This document shows, piece by piece, positions 1-24,993 of a DNA stretch of 64,000 nucleotides. The DNA comes from Gemmatimonadales bacterium. GTDB taxonomy: Bacteria > Gemmatimonadota > Gemmatimonadetes > Gemmatimonadales > GWC2-71-9. The DNA lies in assembly GCA_035601435.1 (NCBI GenBank), contig DATNOH010000059.1:6748-70747 (forward strand). The letters are read 5' to 3'. Below the pieces are notes generated by a model. That model was not told where the DNA came from. It did not search any database and was given only the letters and a program-made list of their open reading frames with translations. Numbering within the stretch: position 1 is the first letter of the stretch; each line of letters opens with the position of its first letter. The position numbers and the translations under genes were made by a program.

Positions 1-532
1 AGTCGCGACCCTCGGCGCGGAGCCCGATGCGCCCGACCCGGTACTCCAGGCCTGCGCCGAAATTGCCGGCGAACTTGGTCCAGGTGTCAGTGGCACCGAG
101 TTGATGCACGCTAATGGCGCCCGCCCCGCCCAACAGATAGGGACTGAGGGTGGCGGAGCCGGCCTGAATCGGATAGCGCAACACGACTGCCGCGTCGTAG
201 GTGAACTTGTTGAACTTCCCCCGGCCCGGCAGCGCGGCGCCACGGACGCTGTCCTGCGCCCAGCTGCCGCTGGCACGGATGCCGACATTGCGCTGCAGCC
301 ACGCGGTCCCGTCGATCGAGCCGATCCAGCCCAATCGCCAGTCGGCGGTACCCGCAGAGTTCAAATTGGCGGCGCCCGAAAGCCCGCCAAACCCGCCGCC
401 CAGCGTGAAGCGATCGGACCAGGAATTGACCGGCTCCGGGGCCGGCGTGCGGGCCTGGGCGCGGAGCGCGAGGGGCGCGCTCATTGCCACGCCCAGGGCC
501 ACGACGAGGTTGGAGACGAAACGCGGCGACAT
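1..532 (-). CDS. outer-membrane beta-barrel protein (porin/OMP_b-brl-like); C-terminal part lies beyond the window edge
   Basis: Own reverse translation from ATG at 530-532 (GGAGGA 4 nt upstream) gives MSPRFVSNLVVALGVAMSAPLALRAQA, a signal peptide. Gly/aromatic-rich alternating strands follow (TLGGGFGG, FAGNFGAGLEYRVG). Not in the ORF track because there is no stop inside the window. Confidence 0.55.
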   Translation of the reverse strand, partial: MSPRFVSNLVVALGVAMSAPLALRAQARTPAPEPVNSWSDRFTLGGGFGGLSGAANLNSAGTADWRLGWIGSIDGTAWLQRNVGIRASGSWAQDSVRGAALPGRGKFNKFTYDAAVVLRYPIQAGSATLSPYLLGGAGAISVHQLGATDTWTKFAGNFGAGLEYRVGRIGLRAEGRD

Positions 533-576
533 AGGTTCCTCCAATGGGTCAGAAGTAGAATGATGCCTGCTCAGCA

Positions 577-609
577 GTTCATGAATGAACTATATCCCGG
601 GAAAGTTCC
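577..609 (-). promoter_or_regulatory. 33-bp conserved element, copy A (GGAACTT-N14-TCATT with GTTCAT-N2-ATGAAC palindrome)
   Basis: The minus strand reads GGAACTTTCCCGGGATATAGTTCATTCATGAAC, ending 44 nt upstream of the OMP ATG at 532. 21/33 positions are identical to the copies at 3375-3407 and 63508-63540. Confidence 0.5.
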
Positions 610-652: not shown

Positions 653-681
653 GATTATCGAACCCTGGAGAGGAGCGACGC

Positions 682-1089
682 ATGACGCCACCAGCGGCAC
701 CCGACCCGGCGAACGCCACGCCGGACGAGGGGCCCCCAGTATCGGGCCTGACCGCCCAGCAGGCGCACGAGCTGGTGGCGGCCGGTCGCGGCGCGCTGGT
801 CGACACCCGCGACCGGCGGTTGTTCGACAACGCGCACGCGGCGGGCGCGCTGTCACTGCCGCTCGCCACCATCGAAGCCGCCCAGGGGCATGCGCCCGCG
901 GGTCTGCTGCCGCCCGATCGCAAGATCATCCTGTACTGCGCGTGAGTGGATGAGCGCACAAGCGCCCGGGCGGCGCGACGGCTGATCGCGGCGGGATACG
1001 ATGAGCGCAACGTCGCCGTGCTGCTCGGCGGCATTCGCGCCTGGCATCAGGCGGGGTACCCGCTCCAGAAGTGGACCGATGGCGCATGA
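682..1089 (+). CDS. rhodanese-like domain protein interrupted by an in-frame TGA at 943-945 (selenocysteine candidate or pseudogene)
   Basis: The ORF track ends at ...KIILYCA-TGA. The same frame stays open for 47 more codons (VDERTSARAARRLIAAGYDERNVAVLLGGIRAWHQAGYPLQKW), which complete a rhodanese fold. The TGA sits inside the catalytic loop C-A-*-V-D-E-R. Confidence 0.6.
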
Positions 1090-1125
1090 GCCGCGCCGTC
1101 GCGGTATGAGCATCGCCGCGATACT

Positions 1126-2508
1126 TTGCGCTTCATGGTCGACGTCCTAACCGCCCTGCGCGAAGGGCTCGCGCCTCATTACACCGTCGAGCGGGAGATC
1201 GGCGCCGGCGGCATGGCGCGTGTGTTCCTCGCCGCAGAACGCCATCCGCCGCGCAAGGTGGCGGTGAAGGTGATGAACCCCGAGGTCGCCGGGTCCGAGT
1301 TTCGCGAGCGCTTCATCCGGGAAGTCGAGCTCACGTCGCGGCTCAGCCACCCGCACATCGTGCCGATTCTCGCCGCGGACGAATGCCTGTTCGTGCCGGA
1401 TGGTCCCGACGGCCTGTGCTACTACGTGATGCCCTACATCGAGGGCGAGTCGTTGCGAGCCCGCCTGGAGCGGGAGCAGCGGCTGCCCCTCGAGCAGGCG
1501 GTGCGCATTGCTCTCGAGGTCGCCGATGCCCTGTCCTACGCACACGCGCAGGGCATCATCCATCGCGACATCAAGCCCGAAAACATCCTCCTGTCGGGAG
1601 ATCACTCCTGGGTGGCGGACTTCGGCATCGCCCGCGCGATCAGTGCCGCGGGCGGCCACACGCTCACGGGGGGCCACCCGGTGGGCTCGCTGGCCTACAT
1701 GAGCCCTGAGCAGCTGATGGGGAGCCGCGCCATCGATGCGCGCACCGACGTGTACAGCTTGGGGGGCGTGCTGTACGAGATGCTGGTCGGCGAGGCGCCA
1801 TTCCTGGGACTCACCGGTGGCTCACCGCGCGGCGGCACGGCCCTCGACAAGGTGCTGCGCGCGCAAGGCGTGAGCCACCGCAGCGAGCGGGCCGTCAAGG
1901 AGACTGTCGCCCGCGCGCTCGCGCCCGAGCCAGGCGACCGTTTCGGATCTGTCGACGAGCTCGCGACCCGCCTCCGCGACGCGGTAAGCCGACGGCTGGT
2001 CCTGCGGCTGCCGCAGGCGCGCTGGAAGGTGGCGCTGCTGGGCGTAGTCACGCTCGCGGCGCTGGGCGTGGCGGCGGTGGCGCTGCTGGGCAAGCGCCCC
2101 CCGGCACTCGACCCGAGGCGCGTCGTGGTCGCGGGGTTCGAAGACCTCTCGGGCGACTCGACCCTCGCCCCGTTGGGCCGCATCGCGGCCGATTGGCTCA
2201 CGCAGGCGCTGGCACGACGCGGTGGGCTGGAGGTCGTGCCCGGCGCCGGTACCGGCCATCTCCAGCCCGCGGACATCCGAGCCCTGGCCGCCCAGACCGG
2301 GGCGGGGACGGTGATCTCGGGAACGTACTACCGTGAAGGGGACTCGGTCTTTTTCCACGTGCAGGTCATCGACGCGGCGCGGGGTACGCTGCGGCGTGGC
2401 GTGGAGCCGGTTGGTGCGCCGCGGCGAGCGCCCACCCAAGGGGCCGAGGCGCTGGGCTACCGCCTCACCGCCTTGTTCGACACGCTGTTTCCCCGCACCA
2501 ACGACTGA
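1126..2508 (+). CDS. serine/threonine protein kinase with TM segment and C-terminal periplasmic domain
   Basis: Hanks kinase motifs GAGGMARVF, VAVK, HRDIKPENILL, DFGIAR, SPEQ. TM helix VALLGVVTLAALGVAAVALL. TTG start at 1126; alternative ATG at 1135. Confidence 0.9.
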   Translation: MRFMVDVLTALREGLAPHYTVEREIGAGGMARVFLAAERHPPRKVAVKVMNPEVAGSEFRERFIREVELTSRLSHPHIVPILAADECLFVPDGPDGLCYYVMPYIEGESLRARLEREQRLPLEQAVRIALEVADALSYAHAQGIIHRDIKPENILLSGDHSWVADFGIARAISAAGGHTLTGGHPVGSLAYMSPEQLMGSRAIDARTDVYSLGGVLYEMLVGEAPFLGLTGGSPRGGTALDKVLRAQGVSHRSERAVKETVARALAPEPGDRFGSVDELATRLRDAVSRRLVLRLPQARWKVALLGVVTLAALGVAAVALLGKRPPALDPRRVVVAGFEDLSGDSTLAPLGRIAADWLTQALARRGGLEVVPGAGTGHLQPADIRALAAQTGAGTVISGTYYREGDSVFFHVQVIDAARGTLRRGVEPVGAPRRAPTQGAEALGYRLTALFDTLFPRTND

Positions 2509-3576: not shown

Positions 3577-5502
3577 ATGGTCGCGCCTATGGCCTTACGG
3601 ATCCTGTTGTTGGAAGACGTGCCGGCGGACGCCGCGCTGCTCGAACGCCACCTGTCCAGGTCGGGATTGGAGTTCGTCAGCGAGCGGGTAGACACGCGCG
3701 CCCGCTTCGAAGAGGCGCTGCGGGACTTCGTGCCGGATATCATCCTGTCCGACCACGGCCTCCCGGGGTTCGACGGAGCCGCGGCGCTCGCGCTGGTCAA
3801 CGAACGCTTCCCCACCCTTCCGGTCATTCTGGTTACGGGCTCGCTCAACGAGGAAAAAGCGGTCGAGTTCATGAAGGCGGGCGCCGCCGACTACATCCTG
3901 AAGGACCACCTGACCCGACTGCCCGAGGCCATCCGGCGCGCCCTGCGGGAACGGCTGCTGCGCGAGGAGCGCGAGCAAGCCGTCGCCGCGCTACGGGCGT
4001 CGGAAGCCCAGTACCGCTCGATGTTCGAGAGCACACCGTATCCCATGTGGGTCTTCGACCTGGAGACGCACCGCGTGCTGGCGGTGAACGGCGCCGCGAT
4101 CAAGCATTACGGGTACTCGCGCGACGAGTTCCTGGCGCTGCGCATCGAGGACCTGCGTCCGCCCGAGGATGTCCCGGCCCTGCTGCGACACCTCGAGACC
4201 ATGCCCTCCGAATATCACAACGCCGGTACGTGGCGGCATCGCAGGAAGGACGGGACGCTCATCGAGGTGGAGACCAGCGGTCACGGAATCACGTTTGCCG
4301 GCCGGCGGGCGGAGCAAGTCGTGATCAACGACGTAACGGAGCGAAAGCGGCTCGAGGAGCAGTTCCGCCAGGCGCAGAAGATGGAGGCCGTAGGGCGTCT
4401 CGCGGCCGGAGTGGCGCACGACTTCAACAATCTCCTGACCGCGATCCTGGGCACGACCGACCTGATGCTCGAGGACATGCAGGCGGACGATGCCGATCGC
4501 GAAGGCCTGCTCGACATCCGGAGCGCGTCGGAGCGGGCCGCCGTGCTGACGCGGCAGCTGCTCACGTTCAGCCGCCAGCAGGTGGTGTCTCCCCAGGTGC
4601 TGCGCCTGAACGAACTCGTCCTGGAGCTGGAAAAGCTGCTGCGCCGTCTGCTGGGCGAGGACGTGGCGATCCGGGTCGGGGTCGCACCCGATTGCGGGGC
4701 CGTGAAGGCCGACCCGGGCCAGCTCGAGCAGGTCATCGTGAATCTCGCGGTGAACGCGCGTGATGCGATGCCGAATGGTGGACGCCTCACGATCGAAACA
4801 AAGAACGTCGATCTCGACGCCGAGTATCCCACCGATCGGGTCACCATTCCCGCGGGGCGCTACGTCATGCTGGCCGTCACCGATACGGGGACGGGGATGG
4901 ACGCGCAAACCAAGGCCCGGATCTTCGAGCCATTCTTCACGACGAAGCCCGTCGGCAAGGGAACCGGGCTGGGCCTCGCTACGGTGTACGGCGCGGTGAA
5001 GCAGAGCGGCGGATACATCTGGCTGTACAGCGAAGTGGGACAAGGCACGAGCTTCAAGATCTACCTGCCGCGGATCGACGCCGCGGAGCCGCAAGCGGCG
5101 GCGGCCGAGGCGGCGGTGCCGCTCGACGGCTCCGAGACGGTGCTAGTCGCCGAGGACGAAGACGCGGTGCGCCAGATCATCGAAAAGGCGCTTCAGGCGC
5201 GGGGGTACACTGTGATGGTCGCACGGGGCGGAACCGAGGCCCTCGCCATCGCGGGCCGCCATGCCGGGCAGATCGACCTCCTGGTGACCGACGTGGTGAT
5301 GCCGGACATGAACGGGCGGGCCCTGTCCGAGCGCCTGACGCACGTGCGACCCACGATCAAGACGCTGTATCTGTCCGGTTACACCGACGACGCGATCCTG
5401 CATCACGGTGTCCTGGAAGAGGGCGTCGCCTTCCTGCAGAAACCGTTTTCGCTCGGAGCGTTGGCGCGCAAGGTCCGCGAAGTGATCGAGGCCCGCCCCT
5501 GA
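3577..5502 (+). CDS. hybrid sensor histidine kinase (REC-PAS-HisKA-HATPase-REC)
   Basis: N-terminal receiver (RILLLEDVP...ILSDHGLPGFDG). PAS (YRSMFESTPYPMWVFD). H-box VAHDFNNLL. N/G boxes NARDAMP, DTGTGMD, GTGLGLA. C-terminal receiver (VLVAEDE...LVTDVVMPDMNG). Confidence 0.92.
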   Translation: MVAPMALRILLLEDVPADAALLERHLSRSGLEFVSERVDTRARFEEALRDFVPDIILSDHGLPGFDGAAALALVNERFPTLPVILVTGSLNEEKAVEFMKAGAADYILKDHLTRLPEAIRRALRERLLREEREQAVAALRASEAQYRSMFESTPYPMWVFDLETHRVLAVNGAAIKHYGYSRDEFLALRIEDLRPPEDVPALLRHLETMPSEYHNAGTWRHRRKDGTLIEVETSGHGITFAGRRAEQVVINDVTERKRLEEQFRQAQKMEAVGRLAAGVAHDFNNLLTAILGTTDLMLEDMQADDADREGLLDIRSASERAAVLTRQLLTFSRQQVVSPQVLRLNELVLELEKLLRRLLGEDVAIRVGVAPDCGAVKADPGQLEQVIVNLAVNARDAMPNGGRLTIETKNVDLDAEYPTDRVTIPAGRYVMLAVTDTGTGMDAQTKARIFEPFFTTKPVGKGTGLGLATVYGAVKQSGGYIWLYSEVGQGTSFKIYLPRIDAAEPQAAAAEAAVPLDGSETVLVAEDEDAVRQIIEKALQARGYTVMVARGGTEALAIAGRHAGQIDLLVTDVVMPDMNGRALSERLTHVRPTIKTLYLSGYTDDAILHHGVLEEGVAFLQKPFSLGALARKVREVIEARP

Positions 5503-11378: not shown

Positions 11379-12254
11379 TTACGCCTTCTCTGCACGTTCG
11401 AACGCGCGCGCCAGCGCGCGGCGCGTGAGCACGGCAACGAGCCGACGGCGGTAGGCGGCCGACGCATGGATGTCGGAAGGCGGATCGATATCGCGCGTGG
11501 CCGCCGCCTCCCCCGCGGCGCGCAACAGCTCGGCCGACGGGGTCTGGCCGGAGAGCCCCTTCCCTGCCTCGGTTGCGAGCACCGGCCCATCGCCCACGCT
11601 CAGCAAGCCGATCCGCGCCTCCTTGCACCGACCGCGCGGGTCGAGCGTCACGATGGCTGCGACCCCGACCAGGGCGTAGTCCCCGTGGCGGCGCGCCAGT
11701 TCGAGAAACGCGGTGCCGCTCGAGGCGGGGAGCGGCGGGACTGCGATCTCGACCAGCAGCTCGCCCGGCTCGAGCGCCGTCTCGAGCATGCCCTTGAAGA
11801 ACTCACCCGCCGGAATCGAACGCTCGCCGCTGGAGCTCTTGGCCCGAAACCGCGCGTCGAGCGCCAGCATCACCGCCGGCAGCTCGGCCGACGGATCGGC
11901 ATGGGCGATGCTGCCTCCAATGGTCCCCCGGTTCCGGATCTGCGGGTGCGCGATGGAGGGCATCGCTTCGGCGAGCAGCGGCGCCGCGCGCGCAACCACG
12001 TCGCTCCGCTCGACTGCCCGCTGGCGCGTCATGGCGCCGAGCGCGACGCCCCCTGATTCGGCGCGCACGTACGCAAGCTCGGAAACCCCGTTGAGGTCCA
12101 CGAGCACCGCGGGCCGGGCCAGCCGGAAGTTCATCGCGGGAATGAGGCTCTGGCCGCCCGCCAGCGGCTTCGCTTCGCCACCGTGCTCGGCCAAGAGCGC
12201 CAGGGCCTCGTCCACCGTGGCCGGCGTGAAATACTCGAACGCCGCGGGCTTCAC
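11379..12254 (-). CDS. molybdo-hydroxylase FAD-binding (medium, CoxM-like) subunit, set 1
   Basis: MKPAAFEYFTPATVDEALALLAEHGGEAKPLAGGQSLIP is typical of the FAD_binding_5 N-terminus. GTGA overlap with the large subunit. Confidence 0.88.
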   Translation of the reverse strand: MKPAAFEYFTPATVDEALALLAEHGGEAKPLAGGQSLIPAMNFRLARPAVLVDLNGVSELAYVRAESGGVALGAMTRQRAVERSDVVARAAPLLAEAMPSIAHPQIRNRGTIGGSIAHADPSAELPAVMLALDARFRAKSSSGERSIPAGEFFKGMLETALEPGELLVEIAVPPLPASSGTAFLELARRHGDYALVGVAAIVTLDPRGRCKEARIGLLSVGDGPVLATEAGKGLSGQTPSAELLRAAGEAAATRDIDPPSDIHASAAYRRRLVAVLTRRALARAFERAEKA

Positions 12255-14593
12255 GCGTTCATCAGCTCGAACAGGCGGTTGGGGCTGAGCGGGATCTCGC
12301 AGATCTCCAATCCCGAGCCGGCGAGCGCGTCCTCGACCGCCTGGGCGAACAGCGGGCCGGTCGGAATGGCACCGGCTTCGCCCACGCCTTTCGCGCCCAC
12401 GGGGTTCAGCGGCGAGCGGGTTTCCCGGTGGGTCGTCTCTATGTTTGGGACGTCGGTCGCGGTCGGGAGCAGGTAGTCCATGAACGAAGCGTTGAGCAGC
12501 TGTCCCTCCTCGTCGTACACGAGCTGCTCATAGAACGCGTTGCCGATGCCGTGCGCCACGCCGCCCTGAATCTGGCCCTCCACGATCATCGGGTTGATCA
12601 CGCGGCCGCAGTCGTGCACGACGACGTAGCGCTTGATCTCGACCTGCGCCGTCTCGGCGTCCACTTCGACGAGCATCGCGTGGACGCCGTTCGCGGTGCT
12701 GCCGCGGTCGGGCCCGAAGTACGCGGTGGCCTCGAGGCCAGGCTCGCTGCCGGGCCGCACGGCACCGCGCAGCGGATTCGCCTTCAGCGCGAGCGCGCCG
12801 AGCGCGATGCCAGCCTTGGGGTCGCCGCGCACATGCACCCGCCCGCCGTCGAGCACGAGGTCGGCCGGCGTCGCCTTTAGCTCGCGACTGGCGAGGTCCA
12901 GGATTTTCTCTCGGACTCGGGCAGCCGCCGCGTGACAGGCGCTGCCCGCCACCACCGCGCCGCGACTGGCGAACGTGCCGGTGCCCCAGTGAAACTCCCG
13001 CGTATCGCCCGTGATCACGTGGACGTCTGTTACGTCCACACCCAGCACCTCGGCCACGATCTGCGCGAACACCGTGAAGTGCCCCTGCCCCTGGGTACCC
13101 ACGCCGGTCGCCAGCCGCACGCGGCCGCTCGGCTCGATGGTGACCCGCGCGCCCTCGTAGGGGCCGATCCCCGTCCCTTCGACGTAGCACACCACGCCGA
13201 TCCCGACGTGACGCCCCGCCGCCTTGAGCCGTGGCTGCTCCTCTCGGACGAAGCGCTTGTAGTCGATGACCTCGAGCGCCTGGTCGAGCGCGGGCGCGTA
13301 GTCGCCGCTGTCGTAGGTGAGGGGCGCGGAGTCCTGGAACAGGATCTCGTTGTTGAACGGGAACTGATCGGGCCGGAGCAGGTTCGTGCGGCGAATCTCG
13401 ACACGGTCGATCCCCAGCTCCTTGGCCGCAAAATCCAGGAGCCGCTCGATCACGAATACGCCGTGCTGGCGCCCCGCGCCCCGCACCGGCGTAACGATTG
13501 TCTTGTTCGTGAAGACCGCGGTGAACTCGCTCTCGTAGCTCGGGATGTCGTACGGCCCAAGGAGGGTGCACTGGCTGTTGATCGGCACCGTGAGGCCGTA
13601 GGGATCGTAGGCACCAGTGTCGTGCAAGAATACGTCCTTCACACCGAGGATCTTGCCCTCCTTCGTTACCGCGAGCTCGGCATCGTGGATCTGACCGCGC
13701 TCCTGTGTCGTGGCGAAAAAATTCTCCTGGCGGTCTTCGGTCCACTTGACCGGGCGCCCCAGCCGCATGGCCGCCCACGGTACGAGCACTTCCTCGGGAT
13801 AGAACATCATGATCTTCGGCCCGAAGCCGCCGCCCACGAACGGCGCCACCACGCGCACCTGCGATTCGAGCAGGCCAAGCAACTGGGCGAGGCCGTTCCG
13901 GATGGGGATGGGCGCCTGTGTGGTATCCCACACCGTCAGCTCTTCGGCGCGCGAGTCCCAATGCGCCACGACGGCGCGGTTCTCGATCGCGGCCGACGCA
14001 CCGCGATCGTAGCGGAACCGTCGCTTGATGACCGCGTGCGCGCGGGCTTTAGCGGCCGCCCAGTCGCCTTTTCGCTGCACTACATGCGCCGCGAGGTTGG
14101 AAGGCAGCTGGTCGTGCACGCGGGGGGCCCCCGGGCCGAGTGCGGCCTCGAGCTCCACGGCGGCGGGAAGCGGCTCGGCCTCCACCACTATGTCGTCCAG
14201 CGCGTCTTCGGCCAGATACCGGCTCTCCGCCACGACCATCGCGATGGGCTCGCCCACGTGGCGCAGCTTGTCTTTGGCGAGCGGAACCTGAGTGCAGGAG
14301 TTGAAGACGAGGCCGGGGATGGGAGGAGGCGGCACGAGCAGCGGACCGGGGCGCCAGTAGTCGCCCAGGTCGACCGCCGTGTAGACCGCCACGACTCCCG
14401 CGCGGCTGCGAGCGGCGGACGCGTCGACGCTCGAAAGCCGGGCGTGGGCGTGCTGGCTGCGGAGAAACGCCACGTGCAGCAGGCCGTCGAGCCGCACGTC
14501 GTCCACGAACAGCGCGCGTCCGGTGAGGAGCCGCGCGTCCTCGTTGCGACGGACGCGCTCGCCGATCCCGCTAGGCGCGCGCTGCCGCGCCAC
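12251..14593 (-). CDS. molybdopterin-binding large subunit (CoxL form-II-like / aldehyde oxidase-XDH family), set 1
   Basis: 780 aa. N-terminal RNEDARLLTG...FVDD. The loop PVRGAGRQ resembles the AYRGAGR form-II CoxL signature. C-terminal GVGEAGAIP. Confidence 0.9.
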   Translation of the reverse strand: MARQRAPSGIGERVRRNEDARLLTGRALFVDDVRLDGLLHVAFLRSQHAHARLSSVDASAARSRAGVVAVYTAVDLGDYWRPGPLLVPPPPIPGLVFNSCTQVPLAKDKLRHVGEPIAMVVAESRYLAEDALDDIVVEAEPLPAAVELEAALGPGAPRVHDQLPSNLAAHVVQRKGDWAAAKARAHAVIKRRFRYDRGASAAIENRAVVAHWDSRAEELTVWDTTQAPIPIRNGLAQLLGLLESQVRVVAPFVGGGFGPKIMMFYPEEVLVPWAAMRLGRPVKWTEDRQENFFATTQERGQIHDAELAVTKEGKILGVKDVFLHDTGAYDPYGLTVPINSQCTLLGPYDIPSYESEFTAVFTNKTIVTPVRGAGRQHGVFVIERLLDFAAKELGIDRVEIRRTNLLRPDQFPFNNEILFQDSAPLTYDSGDYAPALDQALEVIDYKRFVREEQPRLKAAGRHVGIGVVCYVEGTGIGPYEGARVTIEPSGRVRLATGVGTQGQGHFTVFAQIVAEVLGVDVTDVHVITGDTREFHWGTGTFASRGAVVAGSACHAAAARVREKILDLASRELKATPADLVLDGGRVHVRGDPKAGIALGALALKANPLRGAVRPGSEPGLEATAYFGPDRGSTANGVHAMLVEVDAETAQVEIKRYVVVHDCGRVINPMIVEGQIQGGVAHGIGNAFYEQLVYDEEGQLLNASFMDYLLPTATDVPNIETTHRETRSPLNPVGAKGVGEAGAIPTGPLFAQAVEDALAGSGLEICEIPLSPNRLFELMNA

Positions 14594-15065
14594 AGGCGAG
14601 TCTCACGGCCGCGACGATGTTCTGGTAACCAGTGCAGCGACACAGATTCCCGGAGAGCGCCTCGCGGATCTCGCGCTCGTCCGGGTCGGGATGGTCGCGC
14701 AGGAACGGCACCAGCGTCATGAGGACGCCCGGCGTGCAGAAGCCGCACTGCAACCCATGGGCCTCGCGAAACGCCGCCTGGAGCGGATGCAGCGCATCGC
14801 CCCCCCCCAAGCCGTCCGACAAACCCTCGACTGTCGCGACGTCGTGCCCATCCGCTTGGACGGCGAACATCAAGCAGGAGCGCACCGCCTCGCCGTCCAA
14901 CAGCACCGTACAGGCGCCGCACACGCCGTGCTCGCACCCGACGTGCGTGCCGGTGAGTCCGAGCTCGTGGCGCAGGAAGTCGGAGAGGAGCAGTCGCGGC
15001 TCCACCGTCCGCTCGTGGCGCACGCCGTTGACCGTGCAGACCAGCGTCGTTATCAAGGTCCGCAA
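14571..15065 (-). CDS. (2Fe-2S)-binding small subunit (CoxS-like), set 1
   Basis: CTVNG...GCEHGVCGACTV...CGFCTPG...NLCRCTGY cysteine clusters. Start inferred at TTG 15063-15065 (alternative TTG at 15054-15056). The ORF-track 499-aa form is an antisense over-extension. Confidence 0.85.
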   Translation of the reverse strand: MRTLITTLVCTVNGVRHERTVEPRLLLSDFLRHELGLTGTHVGCEHGVCGACTVLLDGEAVRSCLMFAVQADGHDVATVEGLSDGLGGGDALHPLQAAFREAHGLQCGFCTPGVLMTLVPFLRDHPDPDEREIREALSGNLCRCTGYQNIVAAVRLACGAAARA

Positions 15066-15110
15066 CGTTACGCCCTGGCCGGGAGTGCAGCAAGGCGACA
15101 GAATTCCACC

Positions 15111-17336
15111 ATGAAGCGTCGCGAAGCACTCGCCAAGCTCACCGGCCGCGAGCGGTACGTGGACGATCTGCCGCTCGAAGGCTTCCTCTGGGGCATGACG
15201 GTGCGCAGCCCGGCGCCCCGCGGCCGCGTCACCGCGATCCGGTTCGGCAAGGACGTCGACTGGTCTCAGTTCGTCGTAGTGGACCACCGCGACATCCCGG
15301 GACCGAACGTCGTAGCCCTGATCGAGGAAGATCAGCCGGTGCTCGCGGCCGGCTATGTGCGCCACGTGCACGAGCCCGTGCTGCTGCTCGCGCACCCGTC
15401 GCGCGAGGCGGTGCGGCGCGCCGTCCGCTCGGTCGAGGTGGTAGTCGGGCCCGAGCCGGCCGCCCTCGACTTCCGTGTCCCGCCCGCCCCAGAGCAGATC
15501 CAATACGGCAGCGACAACGTCATCAAGCATCTCAAGATCGAGAAGGGCGATGTGGAGCGCGCGCTCGCCGGGGCGCCGGTAGTGGTCGCCGGAACGTACG
15601 AGACCGGCGCCCAGGAGCACGTCTACCTCGAGACCCAGGGGATGATCGCCCAGCTCGAGGGAGACGTACTGGTGGTGAAGGGCTCGATGCAGTGCCCCTA
15701 CTATGTCCTCAAGGCGCTGCAGCACGCGCTCACGCGTGACGCGACGCGAGTCCGCGTGATCCAGACGCCCACCGGCGGCGGCTTCGGCGGCAAGGAAGAA
15801 TTCCCATCTCACATCGCCCTGCACGCTGCGCTGCTCGCGCTGAAAAGCGGCCGGCCGGTGAAGCTGATCTATGACCGCGGTGAGGACATGGCCGCGACCA
15901 CCAAGCGGCACCCCGCGCTGGTGCGCCACCGCACCGGGCTCACGCGCGACGGCCGGCTCGTAGCGCAGGACATCGAGGTGGTGATCGATGGCGGCGCGTA
16001 CGTGACCCTGTCTCCGGTCGTGCTGTCGCGCGCGATCATCCATGCCGCCGGGCCGTACGCGTGCGAGCACGTGCGCATCACCGGGCGCGCGATGTTCACG
16101 AACGCCGTGCCGTTCGGGGCGTTCCGCGGCTTCGGCGCCCCCCAGTCACAGTTCGCGGGCGAGCGACACATGGACGTGATCGCGGCGACCATCGGGATCG
16201 ACCCGGTCGAGCTGCGGCGCATCAATTTGCTCAGAGACGGCCAGACGACCGCCACCGGTCAGGTGATCCGAGACGGCGCCGATCGCCTGGCCGTGATGGA
16301 GCGGGCCCTCGAGCTGTCCAGCTACCGGGACAAACAACGGGAGCACGCCGCGTTCAACGCCACGCACCCGACGCTCCGCCGCGGCTCGGGGCTCGCCACG
16401 TTCTATCACGGCGCCGGGTTCACGGGCGGCGGTGAGGTGGCGCTCCAGTCGCGGCTACGCGTGGCGGGCCGCCCGGACGGCGGGGTCGAAGTGTTGAGCG
16501 CCAACATCGAGATGGGCCAGGGCACGCTCACGGTGTTTACCGAGCTCGCGGCGACACGGCTCGGCTTGGCGCCGGAAGACGTGACCATCGCCGAGGCCGA
16601 CACCGGCCGGGTCCCGAACTCCGGGCCCACGGTCGCGTCCCGCACCACGATGATCGTGGGCGGCCTGATCGAGCGCGCGGCCGATGATCTGCGCCGCCAT
16701 GTGGGCCTCGACGATTCGGCCCGCGGCGCAGCGGTGAAGCAGTCAATCCAACGGTGGCACCGCGAGCACCCCGGGGAGCCTCTGTTCGGCGAAGCGGCCT
16801 ACGAGAAGCCCCCCGGCATTGTGTGGGACGACCAGACGTACCGTGGTGACGCCTACGGCGCGTTCGCGTGGGCCGCGTACGTCGCAGAGGTGGAGGTCGA
16901 CCTGCGGACGTACACCACTCGCGTGATCGACTTCGTGGCGGTGCAGGAGGTGGGCAAAGTGCTGAACCCGACGCTCGCCAAGGGACAGGTCCAGGGTGGC
17001 GTGGTCCAGGGAATCGGCTGGGCGCTCATGGAGGAGTGTAAGTGGCGGGACGGGGCGATGGCGAACAATCAGCTCACCAACTACCTGATCCCGACTTCCC
17101 ACGACGTCCCCCCCGTGAGGGTCGCGTTCCTCGAGAACCCATACCCGCACGGCGCGGGTGGCGCGAAGGGGTTGGGCGAGCTGCCGATCGACGGTCCGGC
17201 GCCCGCGATTCTGAACGCGGTGGCACGCGCCACGGGCGCCGAGCCGCGCGCTATCCCCCTCACGCCAGAAAATCTGATGGAGCTCTTGGATGGTCAGGCC
17301 AAGGTAGGGGCGCAGCATGCTGCGCCCCTACGGTAA
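15111..17336 (+). CDS. xanthine dehydrogenase-type molybdopterin-binding subunit, set 2
   Basis: MKRREALAKLTGRERYVDDL start. The active-site stretch FGAFRGFGAPQSQFAGE is typical of XDH/aldehyde oxidase. Adjacent to urate-pathway genes. Confidence 0.9.
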   Translation: MKRREALAKLTGRERYVDDLPLEGFLWGMTVRSPAPRGRVTAIRFGKDVDWSQFVVVDHRDIPGPNVVALIEEDQPVLAAGYVRHVHEPVLLLAHPSREAVRRAVRSVEVVVGPEPAALDFRVPPAPEQIQYGSDNVIKHLKIEKGDVERALAGAPVVVAGTYETGAQEHVYLETQGMIAQLEGDVLVVKGSMQCPYYVLKALQHALTRDATRVRVIQTPTGGGFGGKEEFPSHIALHAALLALKSGRPVKLIYDRGEDMAATTKRHPALVRHRTGLTRDGRLVAQDIEVVIDGGAYVTLSPVVLSRAIIHAAGPYACEHVRITGRAMFTNAVPFGAFRGFGAPQSQFAGERHMDVIAATIGIDPVELRRINLLRDGQTTATGQVIRDGADRLAVMERALELSSYRDKQREHAAFNATHPTLRRGSGLATFYHGAGFTGGGEVALQSRLRVAGRPDGGVEVLSANIEMGQGTLTVFTELAATRLGLAPEDVTIAEADTGRVPNSGPTVASRTTMIVGGLIERAADDLRRHVGLDDSARGAAVKQSIQRWHREHPGEPLFGEAAYEKPPGIVWDDQTYRGDAYGAFAWAAYVAEVEVDLRTYTTRVIDFVAVQEVGKVLNPTLAKGQVQGGVVQGIGWALMEECKWRDGAMANNQLTNYLIPTSHDVPPVRVAFLENPYPHGAGGAKGLGELPIDGPAPAILNAVARATGAEPRAIPLTPENLMELLDGQAKVGAQHAAPLR

Positions 17337-17340
17337 GCGA

Positions 17341-17814
17341 ATGCCCGCAATCGCCATCACCTTCACCCTCAACGGCTCACCGGTGACGGTCGACGTGGAT
17401 CCCGCCGCCCGCCTGCTCGACACGCTCCGTTATCAACTCACGCTCACCGGCACCAAAGAGGGTTGCGGCGAGGGCGAGTGCGGGGCCTGCACCGTGTACC
17501 TGGACGGCTTGCCGGTGAACTCGTGCCTCGTACCCACCTACCAGGTGCGGGGGCATCGGGTGGAGACCGTGGAGTCGCTCGACCCCGGCGCGCTCGAGCC
17601 GTTCGAGCGATGCGGCGCCACACAGTGCGGGGCCTGCACTCCCGGCGTCGTGATGACGGCGTGGTGGATCCGCGAGCATCCCGAGCTGCTCGAGACGCAC
17701 GACACCCGCGAGCTGATGGCAGGAAATCTCTGTCGCTGCACGGGATATGACGGGATCATCGACTCGGTGAAGGAAGCGCTCGAGGCAAGGGGAAAGGGGA
17801 AGCGGGAAGGGTGA
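17341..17814 (+). CDS. (2Fe-2S)-binding subunit, set 2
   Basis: MPAIAITFTLNGSPV...GCGEGECGACTV...CGACTPG...NLCRCTGY. An alternative ATG at 17317 would overlap the upstream gene by 20 nt. Confidence 0.88.
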   Translation: MPAIAITFTLNGSPVTVDVDPAARLLDTLRYQLTLTGTKEGCGEGECGACTVYLDGLPVNSCLVPTYQVRGHRVETVESLDPGALEPFERCGATQCGACTPGVVMTAWWIREHPELLETHDTRELMAGNLCRCTGYDGIIDSVKEALEARGKGKREG

Positions 17815-18641
17815 ACGTCTTATTGCCTGCGAGCCTACCCGAGGCTCTGAACCAGCTCGCGAGTGACGCCACGGCGGTCCCGATGGCCGGCGGGACCGAC
17901 CTCCTGGTGCACTGGCCGGTCCGCCTCGAGGCGCACGAGCGAACCTACGTAGACCTGTCCCGGCTCGACTCCCTGAAGCCGCTGCGCTGGACCGAGGACG
18001 AGTTGACCCTCGGCGGGCTCACGACGTATTGGGACGTCATCCTGGACGCGCGCGCGCGTGCAGAGTTGCCGCTGCTGGTAGACGCCGCACGTCAGGTAGG
18101 AGCGATTCAGATCCAGGCGCGCGGCACGTGGGCCGGGAACATCGTCAACGCCTCGCCCGCGGCAGACGGCGTGCCGGTCCTGATGGCCTACGACGCGGTC
18201 GTTGTGCTCGAATCCCGCAGCGGCCGGGAGGAGGTCCCGCTCGACCGGTTTTATGCGGGCTACAAACAAATGAAGCGCCGGACCGATCAGCTGGTGGTGG
18301 GGATCCGGATCCCACGGCGCCGCTACACCTACCAGGTGTTCGAGAAGATCGGGGCGCGGCGGGCCCAGGCGATTGCCAAGGTCGGCTTGGCCGTCACTTG
18401 CTCCGGCGCCGGCTGGCGGGTAGTGGCGGCGAGCGTCGCGCCCACCATCCGCCGCTGCCCGGCAGTCGAGCGGCTGCTCGAGGCCGGGATCCCAATCGCA
18501 TCCCCGGAAGCCCTCTTGCCCGCCATCGCGCAGGATGTGGCTCCAATCGACGACATTCGCTCGAGCGCCGATTACCGCACCCGCGTGATGGCACGGGTGC
18601 TGTATCACGACTTGCGGGACTTTTGGGGAAAGCGGGCGTGA
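17811..18641 (+). CDS. FAD-binding subunit, set 2
   Basis: VPMAGGTDLLV...TWAGNIVNASPAADG...IDDIRSSADYR. GTGA overlap with the FeS subunit. Confidence 0.88.
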   Translation: MNVLLPASLPEALNQLASDATAVPMAGGTDLLVHWPVRLEAHERTYVDLSRLDSLKPLRWTEDELTLGGLTTYWDVILDARARAELPLLVDAARQVGAIQIQARGTWAGNIVNASPAADGVPVLMAYDAVVVLESRSGREEVPLDRFYAGYKQMKRRTDQLVVGIRIPRRRYTYQVFEKIGARRAQAIAKVGLAVTCSGAGWRVVAASVAPTIRRCPAVERLLEAGIPIASPEALLPAIAQDVAPIDDIRSSADYRTRVMARVLYHDLRDFWGKRA

Positions 18642-19735
18642 CGCCGCTTCCCGGGCGCCGCCCGATCCATACCGCGTATGTCGGCGCGCATCTGTTCCGG
18701 GCAAGGCTCGCCGCCGAATGGGGCGAGCTGGCGCTCAAGACCCTGGCCGACTGTGCCCCCGATGCCGCTGGGCTCACCGCCGCACTCGACTACCAGGTGG
18801 ACGAGCGCATGTTCGCGCGCTTGAAAGAAAAGCTCCGGCGCGAGCCCATCGAGGATCTCCGGATCGACTTCGAGGACGGGTTCGGCAACCGCTCGGATCA
18901 GGAGGAGGACGCGGCGGCGCAGTCGGCCGGTGCGGAGGTCGCGTCCGGTTTGGCCCGAGAGGCCGTGCCGGCGTTCCTGGGCATCCGGATCAAGGCCCTC
19001 GGGGCCGAGCGAGCCACGCGGGCGAGCCGCACACTCGATCTGTTCGTGAGGTCGCTCGTGGAACGCAGTGGGGGGAAGCTCCCCGCGCATTTCACGGTAA
19101 CGCTGCCGAAGGTGGCGAACGCCGAGGAAGTGGCTGCTCTGGTGCGCCTGCTCGAAGAACTCGAGTCGCGGCTCCGTCTCGAGGCGGGCGCTCTCACGCT
19201 CGAGTTGATGGTCGAGACGCCGCGGGCGCTGCTCGGTCCCGACGGCCGCTGCCCGCTCCCGGCGCTCGTGGCCGCGGCGCGCGGCCGCTGTGTCGGCGTG
19301 CACTTCGGGGTGTACGACTACTCCGCGGCGCTGGAGATCGCGCCTTCGCATCACGGCCTGCGGCATCCGGCCTGCGAACACGCGCGCCAGGTCATGCAGG
19401 TCGCGCTCGCCGGGACCGGGGTCGCCCTGTCGGCCGGGTCGACCAACATGCTGCCCGTCGCACCACGCGACCACTTGCTCCGCGCGTGGCGACTGCACTT
19501 CCAGGATGTGCGGCACTCGCTCGTGAGCGGCTTCTACCACGGATGGGACCTGCACCCCGCGCAACTGGTGACGCGGTACAGCGCGGCTTACGGATTCTAC
19601 AGGGAGTGTCTGGAATCCACGGTCGGGGCCGTGCTCGAGGACCCGGCGGTCCGCGGGGTGCGCGCCAGCCTGGTCCAACGGGCGCTCGATTGTGGGGCGA
19701 TCAGTGACGCAGAAGCGAGCGCGGCGCTACCGTAG
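18638..19735 (+). CDS. HpcH/HpaI aldolase / citrate-lyase-beta (CitE)-like TIM-barrel protein
   Basis: EDLRIDFEDGFG, LELMVETPRAL and VHFGVYDYSAAL resemble the D-x-E-D / IET / GxxD metal-substrate motifs of CitE/HpcH enzymes. GTG start in a GTGA overlap with the FAD subunit. Family assignment is from motif memory only. Confidence 0.6.
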   Translation: MTPLPGRRPIHTAYVGAHLFRARLAAEWGELALKTLADCAPDAAGLTAALDYQVDERMFARLKEKLRREPIEDLRIDFEDGFGNRSDQEEDAAAQSAGAEVASGLAREAVPAFLGIRIKALGAERATRASRTLDLFVRSLVERSGGKLPAHFTVTLPKVANAEEVAALVRLLEELESRLRLEAGALTLELMVETPRALLGPDGRCPLPALVAAARGRCVGVHFGVYDYSAALEIAPSHHGLRHPACEHARQVMQVALAGTGVALSAGSTNMLPVAPRDHLLRAWRLHFQDVRHSLVSGFYHGWDLHPAQLVTRYSAAYGFYRECLESTVGAVLEDPAVRGVRASLVQRALDCGAISDAEASAALP

Positions 19736-20923
19736 CGGCGCGCCCGCACGAATCCATTTCCCGAGAAGCTCGCGTTCTTCTGGAGTCATCCCCGTCAAAT
19801 TGCCGAGCGGCATCGTCTGCGCGTCGACCGCGACGGCGAGGATGCGGGGCGCGTTGGCCCGAATCTGGTCCGGGGTGTCGAGCAGCACGCCCAGCGGCGC
19901 GGCGGGAATCCCCGGCGTCGTGGGCGCGCTCGAGTGACAGCCGGCGCAGCGGCGCGCGACGATCAGACGCACGTCCGCGAACGAGACCTGAGCGCCGCTG
20001 CTCGACGCACCCGGGCCCGATCGTGGTGCCGTCACGAGCGCGAGCGCCACCAGTGCGAGCCCGGCGGCGGGCAGCATCCAGACGTTCTTCCGGCCCTGGT
20101 TCCTCAAGTTGAACCAATGACGCGTCGCAACCCCGATGACCGCCAGCCCCGCAAGGATCGCCCAGTTGAGCCGGTGACCGTAGGTCGCGGGGTAGTGGCT
20201 GCTCACCATGATGAACAGCACCGGAAGCGTGAGATAGTTGTTGTGGAGCGACCGCAGCGCCCCCTGCTTGCCGCGCGCCGCGTCGGGGGCGCGACCCGCG
20301 GCGAGCGCGGCGACCATATCCCGTTGGGCCGGAATGATGACCATGAGCACGTTGGCCGCCATGATCGTGCCGATCGCGGCTCCGACATGGAGGTAGGCCG
20401 CGCGCGGGCTCAGCAGCTGGGACAGTCCCCACGCCAGGGCCGTGGCAAGCGCGAACAGCGTCGCGCCCAGGGCGAGCGGCCTGGGTCCGAGCGGCGAGCG
20501 GCACAGGGCGTCGTACACGACCCAGCTGACGATCAGCGTCCCGACCCCCGCCGCCACACCCGCACCTGGTGACAGCCGCGCGACCCGGGGATCGACCAGA
20601 AACGACGCCGCGCCCAGGTAGTAGACCAGCACGAGCAACGCGAACCCCGTGAGCCAGGTGGCGTACGCCTCCCACTTGAACCAGTGGAGCGTACGGGGGA
20701 GGTCTCCGGGAGCCACCGTGTACTTCACCACGCGGTAGAACCCGCCGCCGTGCACCGACCAGAGCTCACCAGCGACGCCGGGCTCCTGACGCTCGGGTGG
20801 AGGCGGGGCGAGCCGGCCGTTCAGCCAGTTGAAATAGAAGGACGTGCCGATCCAGGCGATACCCGTGATCACGTGGGCCCAGCGGAGCGCGAGGTTGAGC
20901 CACTGCTCGAGGTGGGCGCTCAC
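19727..20923 (-). CDS. puuD: urate hydroxylase PuuD (membrane urate oxidase with C-terminal cytochrome c)
   Basis: WAHVITGIAWIGTSFYFNWL N-terminus, multiple TM helices, C-terminal CAGCH haem-c motif. Sits in a uricolysis cluster. Confidence 0.8.
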   Translation of the reverse strand: MSAHLEQWLNLALRWAHVITGIAWIGTSFYFNWLNGRLAPPPPERQEPGVAGELWSVHGGGFYRVVKYTVAPGDLPRTLHWFKWEAYATWLTGFALLVLVYYLGAASFLVDPRVARLSPGAGVAAGVGTLIVSWVVYDALCRSPLGPRPLALGATLFALATALAWGLSQLLSPRAAYLHVGAAIGTIMAANVLMVIIPAQRDMVAALAAGRAPDAARGKQGALRSLHNNYLTLPVLFIMVSSHYPATYGHRLNWAILAGLAVIGVATRHWFNLRNQGRKNVWMLPAAGLALVALALVTAPRSGPGASSSGAQVSFADVRLIVARRCAGCHSSAPTTPGIPAAPLGVLLDTPDQIRANAPRILAVAVDAQTMPLGNLTGMTPEERELLGKWIRAGAPLR

Positions 20924-20935
20924 GGGGGGCGCGGC

Positions 20936-21274
20936 TCAGCTGCCGCGGTAGGTCGTGTAGCCGAACGGGCTGACGAGCAGCGGGACGTGATACTGCTCGG
21001 CATCGCGAATCTCGAACACGATCTCGACGAACGGATGGAACGGCGCGACGCCCAGCGCCGCGAAGTACGCGCCCGTGTCGAAGCGCAGGCGGTACGTACC
21101 GGCGGGAGACTTCAGGTCGCCGGGGAGCAGGTTCGCGACGCGCCCGTTGGTGTCGCTCCGGGTGGTCGCGAGCTCGGCCCAACCGTCGCCGGAGCGGCGC
21201 GCCAACGAGACCGAGACGCCCGCCGCGGGGCGTCCCCGCGCGATGTCCAGGATGTGAGTCGTGATGCCGCTCAT
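20936..21274 (-). CDS. uraH: 5-hydroxyisourate hydrolase (transthyretin-like)
   Basis: 112 aa. ITTHILDIARGRPAAGV start and the diagnostic C-terminal YTTYRGS. Confidence 0.92.
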   Translation of the reverse strand: MSGITTHILDIARGRPAAGVSVSLARRSGDGWAELATTRSDTNGRVANLLPGDLKSPAGTYRLRFDTGAYFAALGVAPFHPFVEIVFEIRDAEQYHVPLLVSPFGYTTYRGS

Positions 21275-21789
21275 GAGACCACCAGTCTATCGAGTCGGAG
21301 CCGTGTGATCTTTGCCTGCTCTTCCGCCGCGACGCGCAGCTCAGTGGCGGGATCGTTCGTGAGACGACCGCGCAGCGCGCCGAGCATCTCGTCGGCCGTC
21401 CGGCCCGTGGCGCAGATCAGGAACACGTGCCCGAACCGCTCCTCATAGGTGCGATTTCCCTGCGCCAACGCGGCGAGCGTCGCTTCGGTCGCGCCGTTCG
21501 CTCCCGCCTGCTCGCGCCCCGCCCAGTCCGTCACGGCCTCCGCCCGGGCGCCGATGCGGGGGTGCGCGGCGAACGCCTCGAGCCAGTCGGCGCGCCCCAG
21601 GCTCCACCACACCCGCTCCGCCGCCGCCAGCAGCTCGGCGTCGCTCGCGAAGGGGCGCGCCGCGAGCATCCCGTCCACCCAGTGCCGCGCGCTGCAGCAA
21701 CGGTGCAGCGCCGCCCGGGCGCGCTCTTCGGACAGCGCGTTGAGATAACTCGCGCTCACGCGAGTCGTTACGTTGCCACCTTTCCCCAC
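21271..21789 (-). CDS. uraD: OHCU decarboxylase
   Basis: AFAAHPRIG...FGHVFLICATGRTADEML motifs. ATGA overlap with uraH. An alternative GTG start at 21759 avoids overlap with alc. Confidence 0.88.
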   Translation of the reverse strand: MGKGGNVTTRVSASYLNALSEERARAALHRCCSARHWVDGMLAARPFASDAELLAAAERVWWSLGRADWLEAFAAHPRIGARAEAVTDWAGREQAGANGATEATLAALAQGNRTYEERFGHVFLICATGRTADEMLGALRGRLTNDPATELRVAAEEQAKITRLRLDRLVVS

Positions 21790-22778
21790 ACCCGGAGCCG
21801 CGCAACTCCGCCATCGGGGAAAATGTTCAGCCGCACGTGGGTGACCGGCTCGCGCTTCCCGGGCGGGACGGCCAGGCGGTGACGCGCATTGGCCCGCAGC
21901 GTCGTCCGGGCAACGAGCTCCCGCCAGGGAGCCCCGTCAGGCGGCGCGCCTCTGCCCGGGACGTCGCACCCCTCGAGACTCGCGCTCTCGGGGAAATTGC
22001 CCTTGAAGTGGGTGGTGTCCAGGTCGACGCGCTCGATCACACCCCGGCGGCCGAGGCGCAGCACCACCCAATCGTGACCGGGCCCGCGCCGGCGCCGCGT
22101 CTCCCACCCGTCGCCCATGTCGCGGGACGGTCCCGGCATGATCAGGTTCAACGGCTCGCTGAAGAACTGATCGCTCGTGGCGAGCGGCACGCCGCCGTGC
22201 TCCACCGCGGCGAGATCGACGGTGCGCCGCGCCGTTGCGATTCTCTGCCAGTCGGGCCGGGCCTCGCCCCAAAGGCGCAGCCGCGCCACGCCGCCGTCGG
22301 GATAGATCTTGAGCCGCACGTGCGTAACGGCCGCATCACTCGCGACGGCGAACTCGTTCTCGGTGTGGCCGGCGAGGGGCGAGCGCGGCAACAACTCCAC
22401 GAACGCGAGATCCAGCGTGCGCAGCGCTCGAGCGGTCACGCGGAGCTCGCCCGACAGCTGCGCCGCGTCGAGCGAGCAGGCGGCTGGATGATTTCCCCGG
22501 AAGTGGGCGGTATCGACGGTGACCACGCGAATCGCGCCCGGAATGCCGAGCCGGACGAGGCACCAGTCGTAGCCGCCCTCGGGGCCACGCCGGCGGCGGG
22601 TTTCCCACCCGTCCATCCATTTCCCACGATCGGTGTACTTGCCCTCGATGAACACGGCTCCCCCGGCCGCAAGCAGGCTGTGCCTCGGCGCAAAGAATTC
22701 GTCCGACGCGGCGAGCGCCCGCCCGCCCACTCGCGCGGCGGCGAGATCGATCAAGCCTTCGTGTGTCACCGCTGCCAT
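21768..22778 (-). CDS. alc: allantoicase
   Basis: Two internal repeats, each with DL...GG...SDEFF/SDQFF and WETRRRR. Start at MAAVTHEGLIDLAA. Confidence 0.88.
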   Translation of the reverse strand: MAAVTHEGLIDLAAARVGGRALAASDEFFAPRHSLLAAGGAVFIEGKYTDRGKWMDGWETRRRRGPEGGYDWCLVRLGIPGAIRVVTVDTAHFRGNHPAACSLDAAQLSGELRVTARALRTLDLAFVELLPRSPLAGHTENEFAVASDAAVTHVRLKIYPDGGVARLRLWGEARPDWQRIATARRTVDLAAVEHGGVPLATSDQFFSEPLNLIMPGPSRDMGDGWETRRRRGPGHDWVVLRLGRRGVIERVDLDTTHFKGNFPESASLEGCDVPGRGAPPDGAPWRELVARTTLRANARHRLAVPPGKREPVTHVRLNIFPDGGVARLRVWGKVAT

Positions 22779-24109: not shown

Positions 24110-24993
24110 CTTGCATCCTTCGGCAACGTCCGCCCCACCAGCACGGTGACATTGTCCGTGCCTCCGGCGTCGAGGGCATCGCGCAGCAGGTCCTCGCACA
24201 CCTGTTGCGCCGAGGTCATCGCGAGGAGGCGCTCGCGGATGCGGCTGTCGGGAACGTGCTTCGTGAGGCCGTCGCTGCACAGGAGGCCTACGTCGCCCCA
24301 GTGCTGCTGCATGTGCGTGACGATGGGTGCGGTCTGCGGTCCCCCCAAGGAGCTCGACAGCACGTTGGCGAAGGGTGATTTCAGGGTTTCGCTGCGGCGG
24401 AACACGCCCCGATCGACCAGATCCTGCGCCAGCGTCTGGTCGCGCGAGACCTGCATCAGCTCGCCGTTCCGGAACAGGTAGCAGCGGCTGTCCCCCACCT
24501 GGAGGAGATAGCCGCGCGGCCACACGCCGATCCACAACGTGAGCGTCGTCGCCATGTGCGCTTCCAGCGGACCCGTGGGACTGTTGGCCTGAATGTCCTC
24601 GTGCACCCGTAGCGCCGCTTCTTCGAGCGCCCGCGGGAAGCGCTCTTCGTCGGCGGGGTCGACCGAGTAGTAGCAGTGTATCGCCCGGGTCACGTAGCGC
24701 GTGATCGCGCCGACCGCCAGCCGACTCGCCTCTTCGCCGGCTGCGGCGCCACCTACGCCATCCGCGACCATGGCGACGAACGCCAGGCGCTCGGTGTCCT
24801 GCCACAAGAGATCCGACGTGGGGAGGCTCGTGAGATGCACCTGCATCCGCTTGTGAAGCGAGGAGATGAGAAAATGGTCCTGGTTCTCGCGCCGGACTTT
24901 GCCGGGATGGGTGACGCCATAGACGTCGATCTCATCGTCGCGGGGCTTGCGACCAATGGAAACCGCGGACGCGGCGGGATCAGACGCTCGCAT
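24106..24993 (-). CDS. PP2C-family serine/threonine phosphatase
   Basis: YGVTHPGKVRRENQDHF, MVADGVGG, LLCSDGL and GGTDNVTVLV are the PPM motifs. Confidence 0.9.
   Translation of the reverse strand: MRASDPAASAVSIGRKPRDDEIDVYGVTHPGKVRRENQDHFLISSLHKRMQVHLTSLPTSDLLWQDTERLAFVAMVADGVGGAAAGEEASRLAVGAITRYVTRAIHCYYSVDPADEERFPRALEEAALRVHEDIQANSPTGPLEAHMATTLTLWIGVWPRGYLLQVGDSRCYLFRNGELMQVSRDQTLAQDLVDRGVFRRSETLKSPFANVLSSSLGGPQTAPIVTHMQQHWGDVGLLCSDGLTKHVPDSRIRERLLAMTSAQQVCEDLLRDALDAGGTDNVTVLVGRTLPKDAS

Follow-up and report, generated by a model that had tools for sequence, protein, structure and literature searches.

Positions 682-1089 of the 64,000-nucleotide stretch of DNA analysed here (the window) very probably constitute one gene, encoding a 135-residue cytoplasmic single-domain rhodanese in which the in-frame UGA at 943-945 would be decoded as selenocysteine (Sec), a conclusion that we base on comparison of the gene with its relatives. 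Four of the features by which bacterial selenoprotein genes are recognized were found together at this locus, namely a conserved UGA column, coding evolution downstream of it, homologs with Cys in the same column, and a stem-loop that fits the bacterial SECIS (bSECIS) model. The initial annotation had presented the TGA as either a selenocysteine candidate or a fresh pseudogene; the first of these readings was borne out by the conserved TGA, by purifying selection on the codons that follow it, by the Cys homologs, and by the preservation of the hairpin at synonymous sites.

The frame upstream of the TGA ends ...PPDRKIILYCA, with codons CTG-TAC-TGC-GCG at 931-942 (L-Y-C-A) lying directly before it, and the same frame past the TGA reads VDERTSARAARRLIAAGYDERNVAVLLGGIRAWHQAGYPLQKWTDGA (47 codons). 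The earlier description of an ORF that stops after ILYCA and is followed by 47 in-frame codons completing a rhodanese therefore held in all its sequence statements (Table 1). With the stop replaced, the Pfam Rhodanese domain (PF00581) spanned the TGA, covering residues 24-123 at 46.5 bits against a cutoff of 22.2; gene callers took the 87-codon part as the entire protein. TGA is otherwise used as an ordinary stop in the window, as had been noted, terminating approximately 31 of the 57 GC3-supported ORFs. When the window was scanned for coding signal continuing past a TGA, only the rhodanese gene and one pair of same-frame neighbours were returned, and a scan for further TGA-split frames in the window and all loci added only same-frame neighbours and a gene of the CMD family on one metagenome contig (L095; see below).

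Table 1. Coordinates of the rhodanese gene, its proposed recoding signals, and the adjacent kinase gene in the window
Feature	Position	Strand	Basis
Shine-Dalgarno-like GGAGAGGAG	667..675	+	read from sequence; ATG 682 follows after 6 nt
N-terminal 87 codons of rhodanese gene, end I-I-L-Y-C86-A87	682..942	+	ORF translation
TGC, Cys86, probably the canonical catalytic rhodanese Cys	937..939	+	invariant in all homologs
In-frame UGA, proposed Sec88 codon (C-A-U dyad)	943..945	+	conserved TGA column
C-terminal 47 codons, remainder of rhodanese domain (VDERTSARAARRLIAAGY...LLGGIRAWHQAGYPLQKWTDGA / ...GGIRAWHQAGYPLQKWTDGA)	946..1086	+	translation, Pfam, dN/dS
Zone of suppressed synonymous change, codons +4 to +11	955..978	+	minor-codon fraction, dS
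Candidate bacterial SECIS hairpin, 5-bp stem GCGCC/GGCGC, apical loop CGGGC	962..976	+	fold and conservation
Real stop codon TGA of the 135-residue protein	1087..1089	+	read from sequence
Hanks-type Ser/Thr kinase, transmembrane segment, extracytoplasmic C-terminal part	1126..2508	+	Pfam Pkinase, 156 bits

Of 94 related loci, 93 (12 Gemmatimonadales species genomes and 80 soil metagenome contigs) have the TGA in this column and an uninterrupted frame after it, at 53-99% identity, a divergence that excludes their being copies of a single assembly artefact. Species-representative genomes, when scanned, yielded 13 loci, every one of them from a soil Gemmatimonadetes/Gemmatimonadales MAG; 12 carried the TGA at the column together with a conserved downstream frame, and the remaining one (L013) was degraded by a deletion. 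The metagenome scan confirmed 175 relatives, and the TGA was found in 80/80 of those kept. It was likewise present in all 78 distinct sequences of the clade and in three more distant relatives (L094, L095, and L097). Among the genomes matched, the predicted selenocysteine-type Gemmatimonadales clade is confined to that order. Of the 106 clusters obtained in a protein search, nearly all had approximately 87 residues and an (I/F)LYCA terminus. For the 78 distinct sequences, dN/dS was 0.28 upstream of the TGA and 0.235 over downstream codons +14 to +47, from which we conclude that the part downstream of the TGA is translated.

The best NCBIfam match of the window protein, and of every clade member tested, was NF041203 ("rhodanese_LYCAU", rhodanese-related (seleno)protein), which corresponds to "rhodanese-like form 3, CxU" (PMC13188914). 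Reviews list CxU rhodanese selenoproteins as predicted by bioinformatics (PMC13188914), in agreement with the earlier statement that rhodanese-related selenoproteins are an established family. The window protein scored 58.4 bits and five clade members 52-69 bits, below the curated cutoff of 115, and other relatives scored 43-94 bits (L096/P0242, 93.8; L097/P0259, 86.8). The clade and the NF041203 family have in common a single rhodanese domain, a length of ~126-135 residues, a literal L-Y-C-A-U, and often an end-to-end alignment, and the relatives nearer that model (L096 and L097) carry the same GCGCC...GGYGC hairpin after the TGA column. The Gemmatimonadales clade differs in that it falls below the cutoff, and so is left unnamed by the model, and in that it is always followed by a Ser/Thr kinase. 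Judged from these profile comparisons, the clade is a divergent, lineage-specific sister clade of the known predicted family. The NCBI records for these MAGs are truncated 84-85-aa "rhodanese-like domain-containing protein" entries, and approximately 100 database clusters stop at ...LYCA and are stored as 84-88-residue fragments.

Cys86 was invariant across all homologs and is likely the canonical catalytic Cys, with Sec88 likely being a second redox residue in an extended loop. In the broader of two profiles (A5), the Y-C of the family aligned with the Y-C (catalytic) of 6mxv, 1yt8, and 3tp9, and a two-residue insertion held the Sec/Cys column. In an AlphaFold model of the Cys homolog P0149 (pLDDT 89.9), the central strand ended at the Tyr and the Cys was the first residue after it, the strand being followed by a six-residue coil, C-T-C-L-D-E, and then a helix; the top Foldseek matches of this model were all rhodaneses (2hhg, 6mxv, 3tp9, and YgaP). 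The narrower profile (A3), in an ungapped alignment to 6mxv, instead put the Sec column at the canonical catalytic position, as did an ungapped count from the G-Y anchor, and this assignment was dropped after the A5 profile and the end of the model strand at the Tyr had been considered. Thus, the initial placement of the TGA two residues after the catalytic Cys agrees with the A5 profile and the P0149 model and disagrees with the A3 profile.

The family signature was Y-C-x-[U/C]-x-x-E-x-[T/S]-S, that is, Y-C-x-U in the TGA-containing members and Y-C-x-C in the Cys homologs. The initial annotation had further proposed a C-x5-R loop of the Cdc25/Acr2 length, and this part of the description failed: position +6 from Cys86 was R in 86% of the close clade and A, D, G, E, S, H, Y, or N in other members, and because the Arg of C-x5-R is variable the Cdc25/Acr2 analogy does not hold. 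The family shares the superfamily fold with the Cdc25/Acr2 C-x5-R phosphatases and arsenate reductases, but it has neither the conserved Arg nor a His before the Cys, and its loop is two residues longer than that of a canonical rhodanese, not one; the window protein reads C-A-U-V-D-E-R by chance. With canonical single-domain rhodaneses (GlpE 1GMX, PspE, YgaP, and Francisella 6MXV) the family shares the fold and probably the position of the catalytic Cys after the central strand ("..LYC"), whereas its active-site loop region is two residues longer and, in place of the canonical x-x-G-x-[R/T], carries Sec or Cys as a second redox residue at +2, with an invariant Glu at +5. The Bacillus halodurans protein BH2092 (PDB 3O3W/3NHV) aligned without a gap through the active site (TYCWGPACNGATKAA against ILYCtCpaEetSaaaa) and so has a loop of the same extended length; it also has a second Cys within that loop and is a structural match. 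BH2092 differs in that its second Cys is at +5, not +2, in that it has no Sec, and in its identity of only ~18-19% to the modelled homolog. The Cys86/Sec88 dyad would most likely cycle between thiol/selenol, Cys-persulfide, and Cys-Sec selenenylsulfide states, which would make the product a redox-active sulfurtransferase or a persulfide-handling protein.

The hairpin downstream of the TGA was present as the initial annotation had described it (arms GCGCC at 962-966 and GGCGC at 972-976, loop CGGGC at 967-971). It begins 16 nt past the UGA, the UGA-to-loop distance is 21 nt, and the hairpin folded alone at -9.3 kcal/mol. Single-sequence folds of 940-1010 (z = +1.1) and of 943-985 were no better than those of shuffled sequences, and such folding is uninformative here because the DNA is 68% G+C. 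An identical 15-mer, GCGCCCGGGCGGCGC, was found at 21708-21722 on the minus strand, in an OHCU decarboxylase gene, where it encodes R-A-R-A-A and the nearest TGA is out of frame; this second copy is a chance duplicate. The hairpin by itself thus proves nothing in GC-rich DNA, as the earlier caution that short GC hairpins are common had implied, and since it is at chance level within this genome its significance derives only from comparison with relatives. A search of Rfam gave no family at gathering scores, with only chance matches at E <= 10.

In that comparison the constraint lay at the RNA level. The minor-codon fraction in codons +4 to +11 was 0-0.03, against a median of 0.17 elsewhere in the gene, which made this the lowest 8-codon window of the gene (Mann-Whitney p = 5e-6), and dS was 0.11 over the hairpin zone versus ~0.5. 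The codons concerned are CGC ACA AGC GCC CGG GCG GCG CGA, including the rare ACA and CGA, and invariance was recorded for AGC (78/78), GCC (76/76), GCG (76/76 and 78/78), and CGA (78/78). The stem was 100% paired in 25 diverse sequences, both substitutions being G-U wobbles, and it was intact in all 41 distinct 60-nt segments, where the only stem changes were C to U, again giving G-U. The loop variants CGGGC, CGUGC, CGUGG, CGGGU, GGGGC, and GGUGC all fit N-G-[G/U]-G-N. The hairpin also followed the TGA in L094 (53% identity, with a Usp gene adjacent), in L095, and in L097 (a low-GC lipoprotein form). The forest-soil contig L095 carries two paralogs in tandem: the Sec form, with its TGA at 1883, has AGCGCCCGGGCGGCGC, whereas in the Cys paralog (TGT at 1488) the same peptide, S-A-R-A-A, is encoded as AGCGCGCGGGCCGCC, which cannot pair, so that the hairpin is absent.

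As summarised for bSECISearch, the bSECIS model specifies a loop of 3-9 nt, a stem of 4-16 bp, an energy of <= -7.5 kcal/mol, a G within the first two loop positions followed by G/U, and 16-37 nt from UGA to loop (PMC13188914). Measured against those constraints, the hairpin has a 5-nt loop, a 5-bp stem, a G at loop position 2 followed by G/U, a distance of 21 nt, and an energy of -9.3 kcal/mol, all within the ranges given there. It has in common with bacterial SECIS elements of the E. coli fdhF type a stem-loop in the coding sequence directly 3' of the UGA, a small apical loop with G then G/U, the spacing, and the energy; it differs from them in being minimal, with a 5-bp GC stem and no demonstrable lower stem or bulged U. 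We infer that with the ribosome at the UGA the 5-bp hairpin would stand just outside the mRNA channel, where it would recruit SelB-GTP-Sec-tRNA(Sec), and that Sec would then be inserted without termination.

Alignment of the homologs at the UGA column, which the initial annotation had proposed as a check, gave TGA in 93/94 loci, Cys in three full-length homologs, and a single genuine TGG. The three Cys homologs came from an exhaustive profile search (P0149, ...LYCTCLDEYTSARAA; P0228, ...TYCSCPAENTSAA; P0243, ...TYCSCPNEETSLAA) and have the motifs YCTC (P0149, with TGT confirmed in the DNA), YCSC (P0228), and YCSC (P0243); Cys aligned with the UGA column, a pattern by which bacterial selenoprotein genes are identified, was thus found. 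Trp stood at the column in three matches. In two of them (P0107/L094 and P0259/L097) the JGI proteins show Trp where the DNA has TGA, evidently through genetic code 4 calling on short contigs, and code-4 Trp entries of this kind could mislead analyses of Sec, Cys, and Trp at such columns. The third, L096 (ENA ERZ23498358, ~520), has a genuine TGG and retains the hairpin as GCGCC-GGUGC-GGCGC, reflecting either a recent Sec-to-Trp change or a sequencing or base error.

A TGG at the column with the hairpin still there is what might be expected if the UGA were read by a near-cognate tRNA (Trp or Cys) in a Sec-independent, hairpin-stimulated programmed read-through. That mechanism could also draw on the fact that Sec machinery was not demonstrated within the window and loci searched, where tblastn with approximate E. 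coli SelA, SelB, and SelD sequences and ARAGORN for tRNA-Sec found no selA, selB, selD, or tRNA-Sec in the 64-kb window or the 13 loci from genomes (L001-L013), and where the 10-kb flank upstream of the window likewise holds no sel genes. We nevertheless consider read-through of this type improbable, because full-length homologs have at this column, next to the invariant catalytic Cys, the chemical analogue of Sec, Cys, because the family is curated as a selenoprotein family, and because the loop sequence and spacing of the hairpin agree with the model for a SECIS of the SelB type; furthermore, L096 is a single 764-bp contig, and the genes of the other two "W" proteins have a TGA codon there.

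The synonymous-site constraint could in principle belong to an RNA element other than a SECIS, such as a more extended helix enclosing the UGA, or a signal acting on the kinase gene that follows. The RNAalifold consensus was indeed a longer, mutually exclusive helix (UGCGCG-UGA with CGGCGCG, 96.3% paired) containing one A-U/G-C compensatory pair, whereas no compensatory covariation was seen in the short stem, which is invariant apart from wobbles. The long helix, however, is broken in L005, L011, L012, L095, and L096, its loop is not conserved, and once the UGA occupies the A site it has to open, leaving 962-976 able to form the short hairpin. Given these breaks, and given that the long helix is impossible during UGA decoding, we retained it as a minor rival only. 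In addition, the constrained element goes with the TGA rather than with the kinase: L094, L095, and L097 contain it although they lack the kinase, and the Cys paralog does not contain it. A function other than that of a SECIS is accordingly very unlikely.

We regard as equally unlikely a split gene, in which translation would stop at the TGA and re-initiate at the adjacent GTG (946) to give two polypeptides that form one rhodanese fold. The TGA-GTG sequence could serve as a termination/re-initiation junction, GTG occupies codon +1 in 72/78 distinct sequences, and one gene caller gave the 47-aa piece as its own ORF (P0275); yet codon +1 is ATT, GCG, CCG, or CGG in L005, L009, L011, L012, L094, L095, and L097, and these members retain the TGA and the hairpin while being unable to start at +1. 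There is also no Shine-Dalgarno sequence or comparable purine run before GTG 946, the break would sit inside the active-site loop, and a split gene would leave the Cys homologs and the loss of the hairpin in the Cys paralog unexplained. Least credible of all, to the point of being negligible, is the fresh pseudogene of the initial annotation (a rhodanese gene recently lost to a nonsense mutation, or a base-call error), for a lone in-frame stop within an otherwise intact domain and one relative truly degraded by deletion (L013) are outweighed by the identical TGA on 93 of 94 independent contigs, at identities as low as 53%, by the purifying selection downstream (dN/dS of 0.235), and by the indexing of the exact 87-aa product in 38 blocks of the assembly collection.

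The predicted selenoprotein gene is linked to the kinase gene in all 81 of the 81 loci with enough sequence, the kinase lying directly downstream; its conserved start is TTG 1126 or ATG 1135, 37-46 nt past the rhodanese stop. In one genome (L012; DASSUS010000173.1, ~6255 onward) the rhodanese stop is missing and the frame continues into the kinase, which predicts a Sec-containing rhodanese-kinase fusion protein. The more distant L094, L095, and L097 are without the kinase. From this linkage the rhodanese would probably work with the co-transcribed membrane Ser/Thr kinase. More tentatively, the Sec-rhodanese may serve as a cytoplasmic redox or sulfane-sulfur sensor module of the adjacent kinase, with the state of its Cys-x-Sec pair gating signalling, a role that we consider possible but doubtful.

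Two arrangements around the gene pair were also observed. In most close relatives a ~45-nt spacer of fixed length (window 1087-1135) leaves the rhodanese stop TGA in the reading frame of the kinase ORF, and within the spacer is a conserved G(A/G)TACTTTGC motif, TTG 1126 included; the stop and the kinase ORF are not so arranged in L008-L010. The arrangement may reflect conservation of a start or regulatory signal and not another read-through. Upstream, an outer-membrane beta-barrel gene (2-589, minus strand) and the rhodanese gene diverge, and the promoter region between them contains the palindromic boxes GTTCAT-GA-ATGAAC (577-590) and GTTCAT-TT-ATGAAC (639-652), 62 bp apart. The arms of the boxes are conserved and their spacer is variable in the closer relatives L001, L002, L004, L013, L067, and L091, and the boxes are absent in L005-L012; by their layout they look like an operator pair for a regulator.

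Elsewhere, the L095 contig (ENA ERZ1758403, JX_forest_Scaff09262659) carries at 144-689 a CMD/AhpD-like gene with an in-frame TGA (381) after ...NGCVY, which would give CxxU, and a hairpin, CCGCUUC-GGG-GAAGCGG, 20 nt after that TGA. The resemblance suggests that the rhodanese and CMD genes of this contig may share a SECIS style. All but a few of 71 database entries for the CMD homologs stop at 79 residues, and the family is apparently recorded as truncated throughout. A protein search with this putative CMD selenoprotein gave no link to the rhodanese MAGs; its contigs belong to an unclassified "bacterium" MAG, DASSXJ01. The window itself contains a purine/urate catabolism cluster (11379-22823) with two molybdenum hydroxylase sets (MoCo-binding, 2Fe-2S, and FAD subunits), a membrane urate oxidase (Urate_ox_N), HIU hydrolase, OHCU decarboxylase, and allantoicase, in which no selenium-cofactor marker genes were seen. 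It also has a signalling-rich region (ORFs at 24106-24993 and 37159-39411 on the minus strand and 3577-5502 on the plus strand) that includes a PP2C phosphatase and a hybrid PAS histidine kinase/response regulator, together with a second ORF having, as judged by eye, a kinase-like start motif (...YTIERELGRGGMATVY).

The gene described here has been recorded as a fragment, and the curated model meant to rescue it misses this clade, so that an annotation error extends across the group. Its 15-nt stem-loop provides a clean SECIS test case, in that synonymous conservation and loss in the Cys paralog together pin down its predicted role. None of the papers in the literature collection searched linked Gemmatimonadetes/Gemmatimonadota with selenocysteine. 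The locus points to selenocysteine use in the Gemmatimonadales, a widespread soil order; our searches turned up no earlier publication on the trait there. That the gene is strictly paired with a kinase, and once fused to it, suggests a role for this predicted selenoprotein family. If the more tentative sensor reading is correct, the locus would show selenocysteine use by this abundant soil order, and would represent a selenoprotein-controlled kinase pair that is fused in at least one Gemmatimonadales genome.
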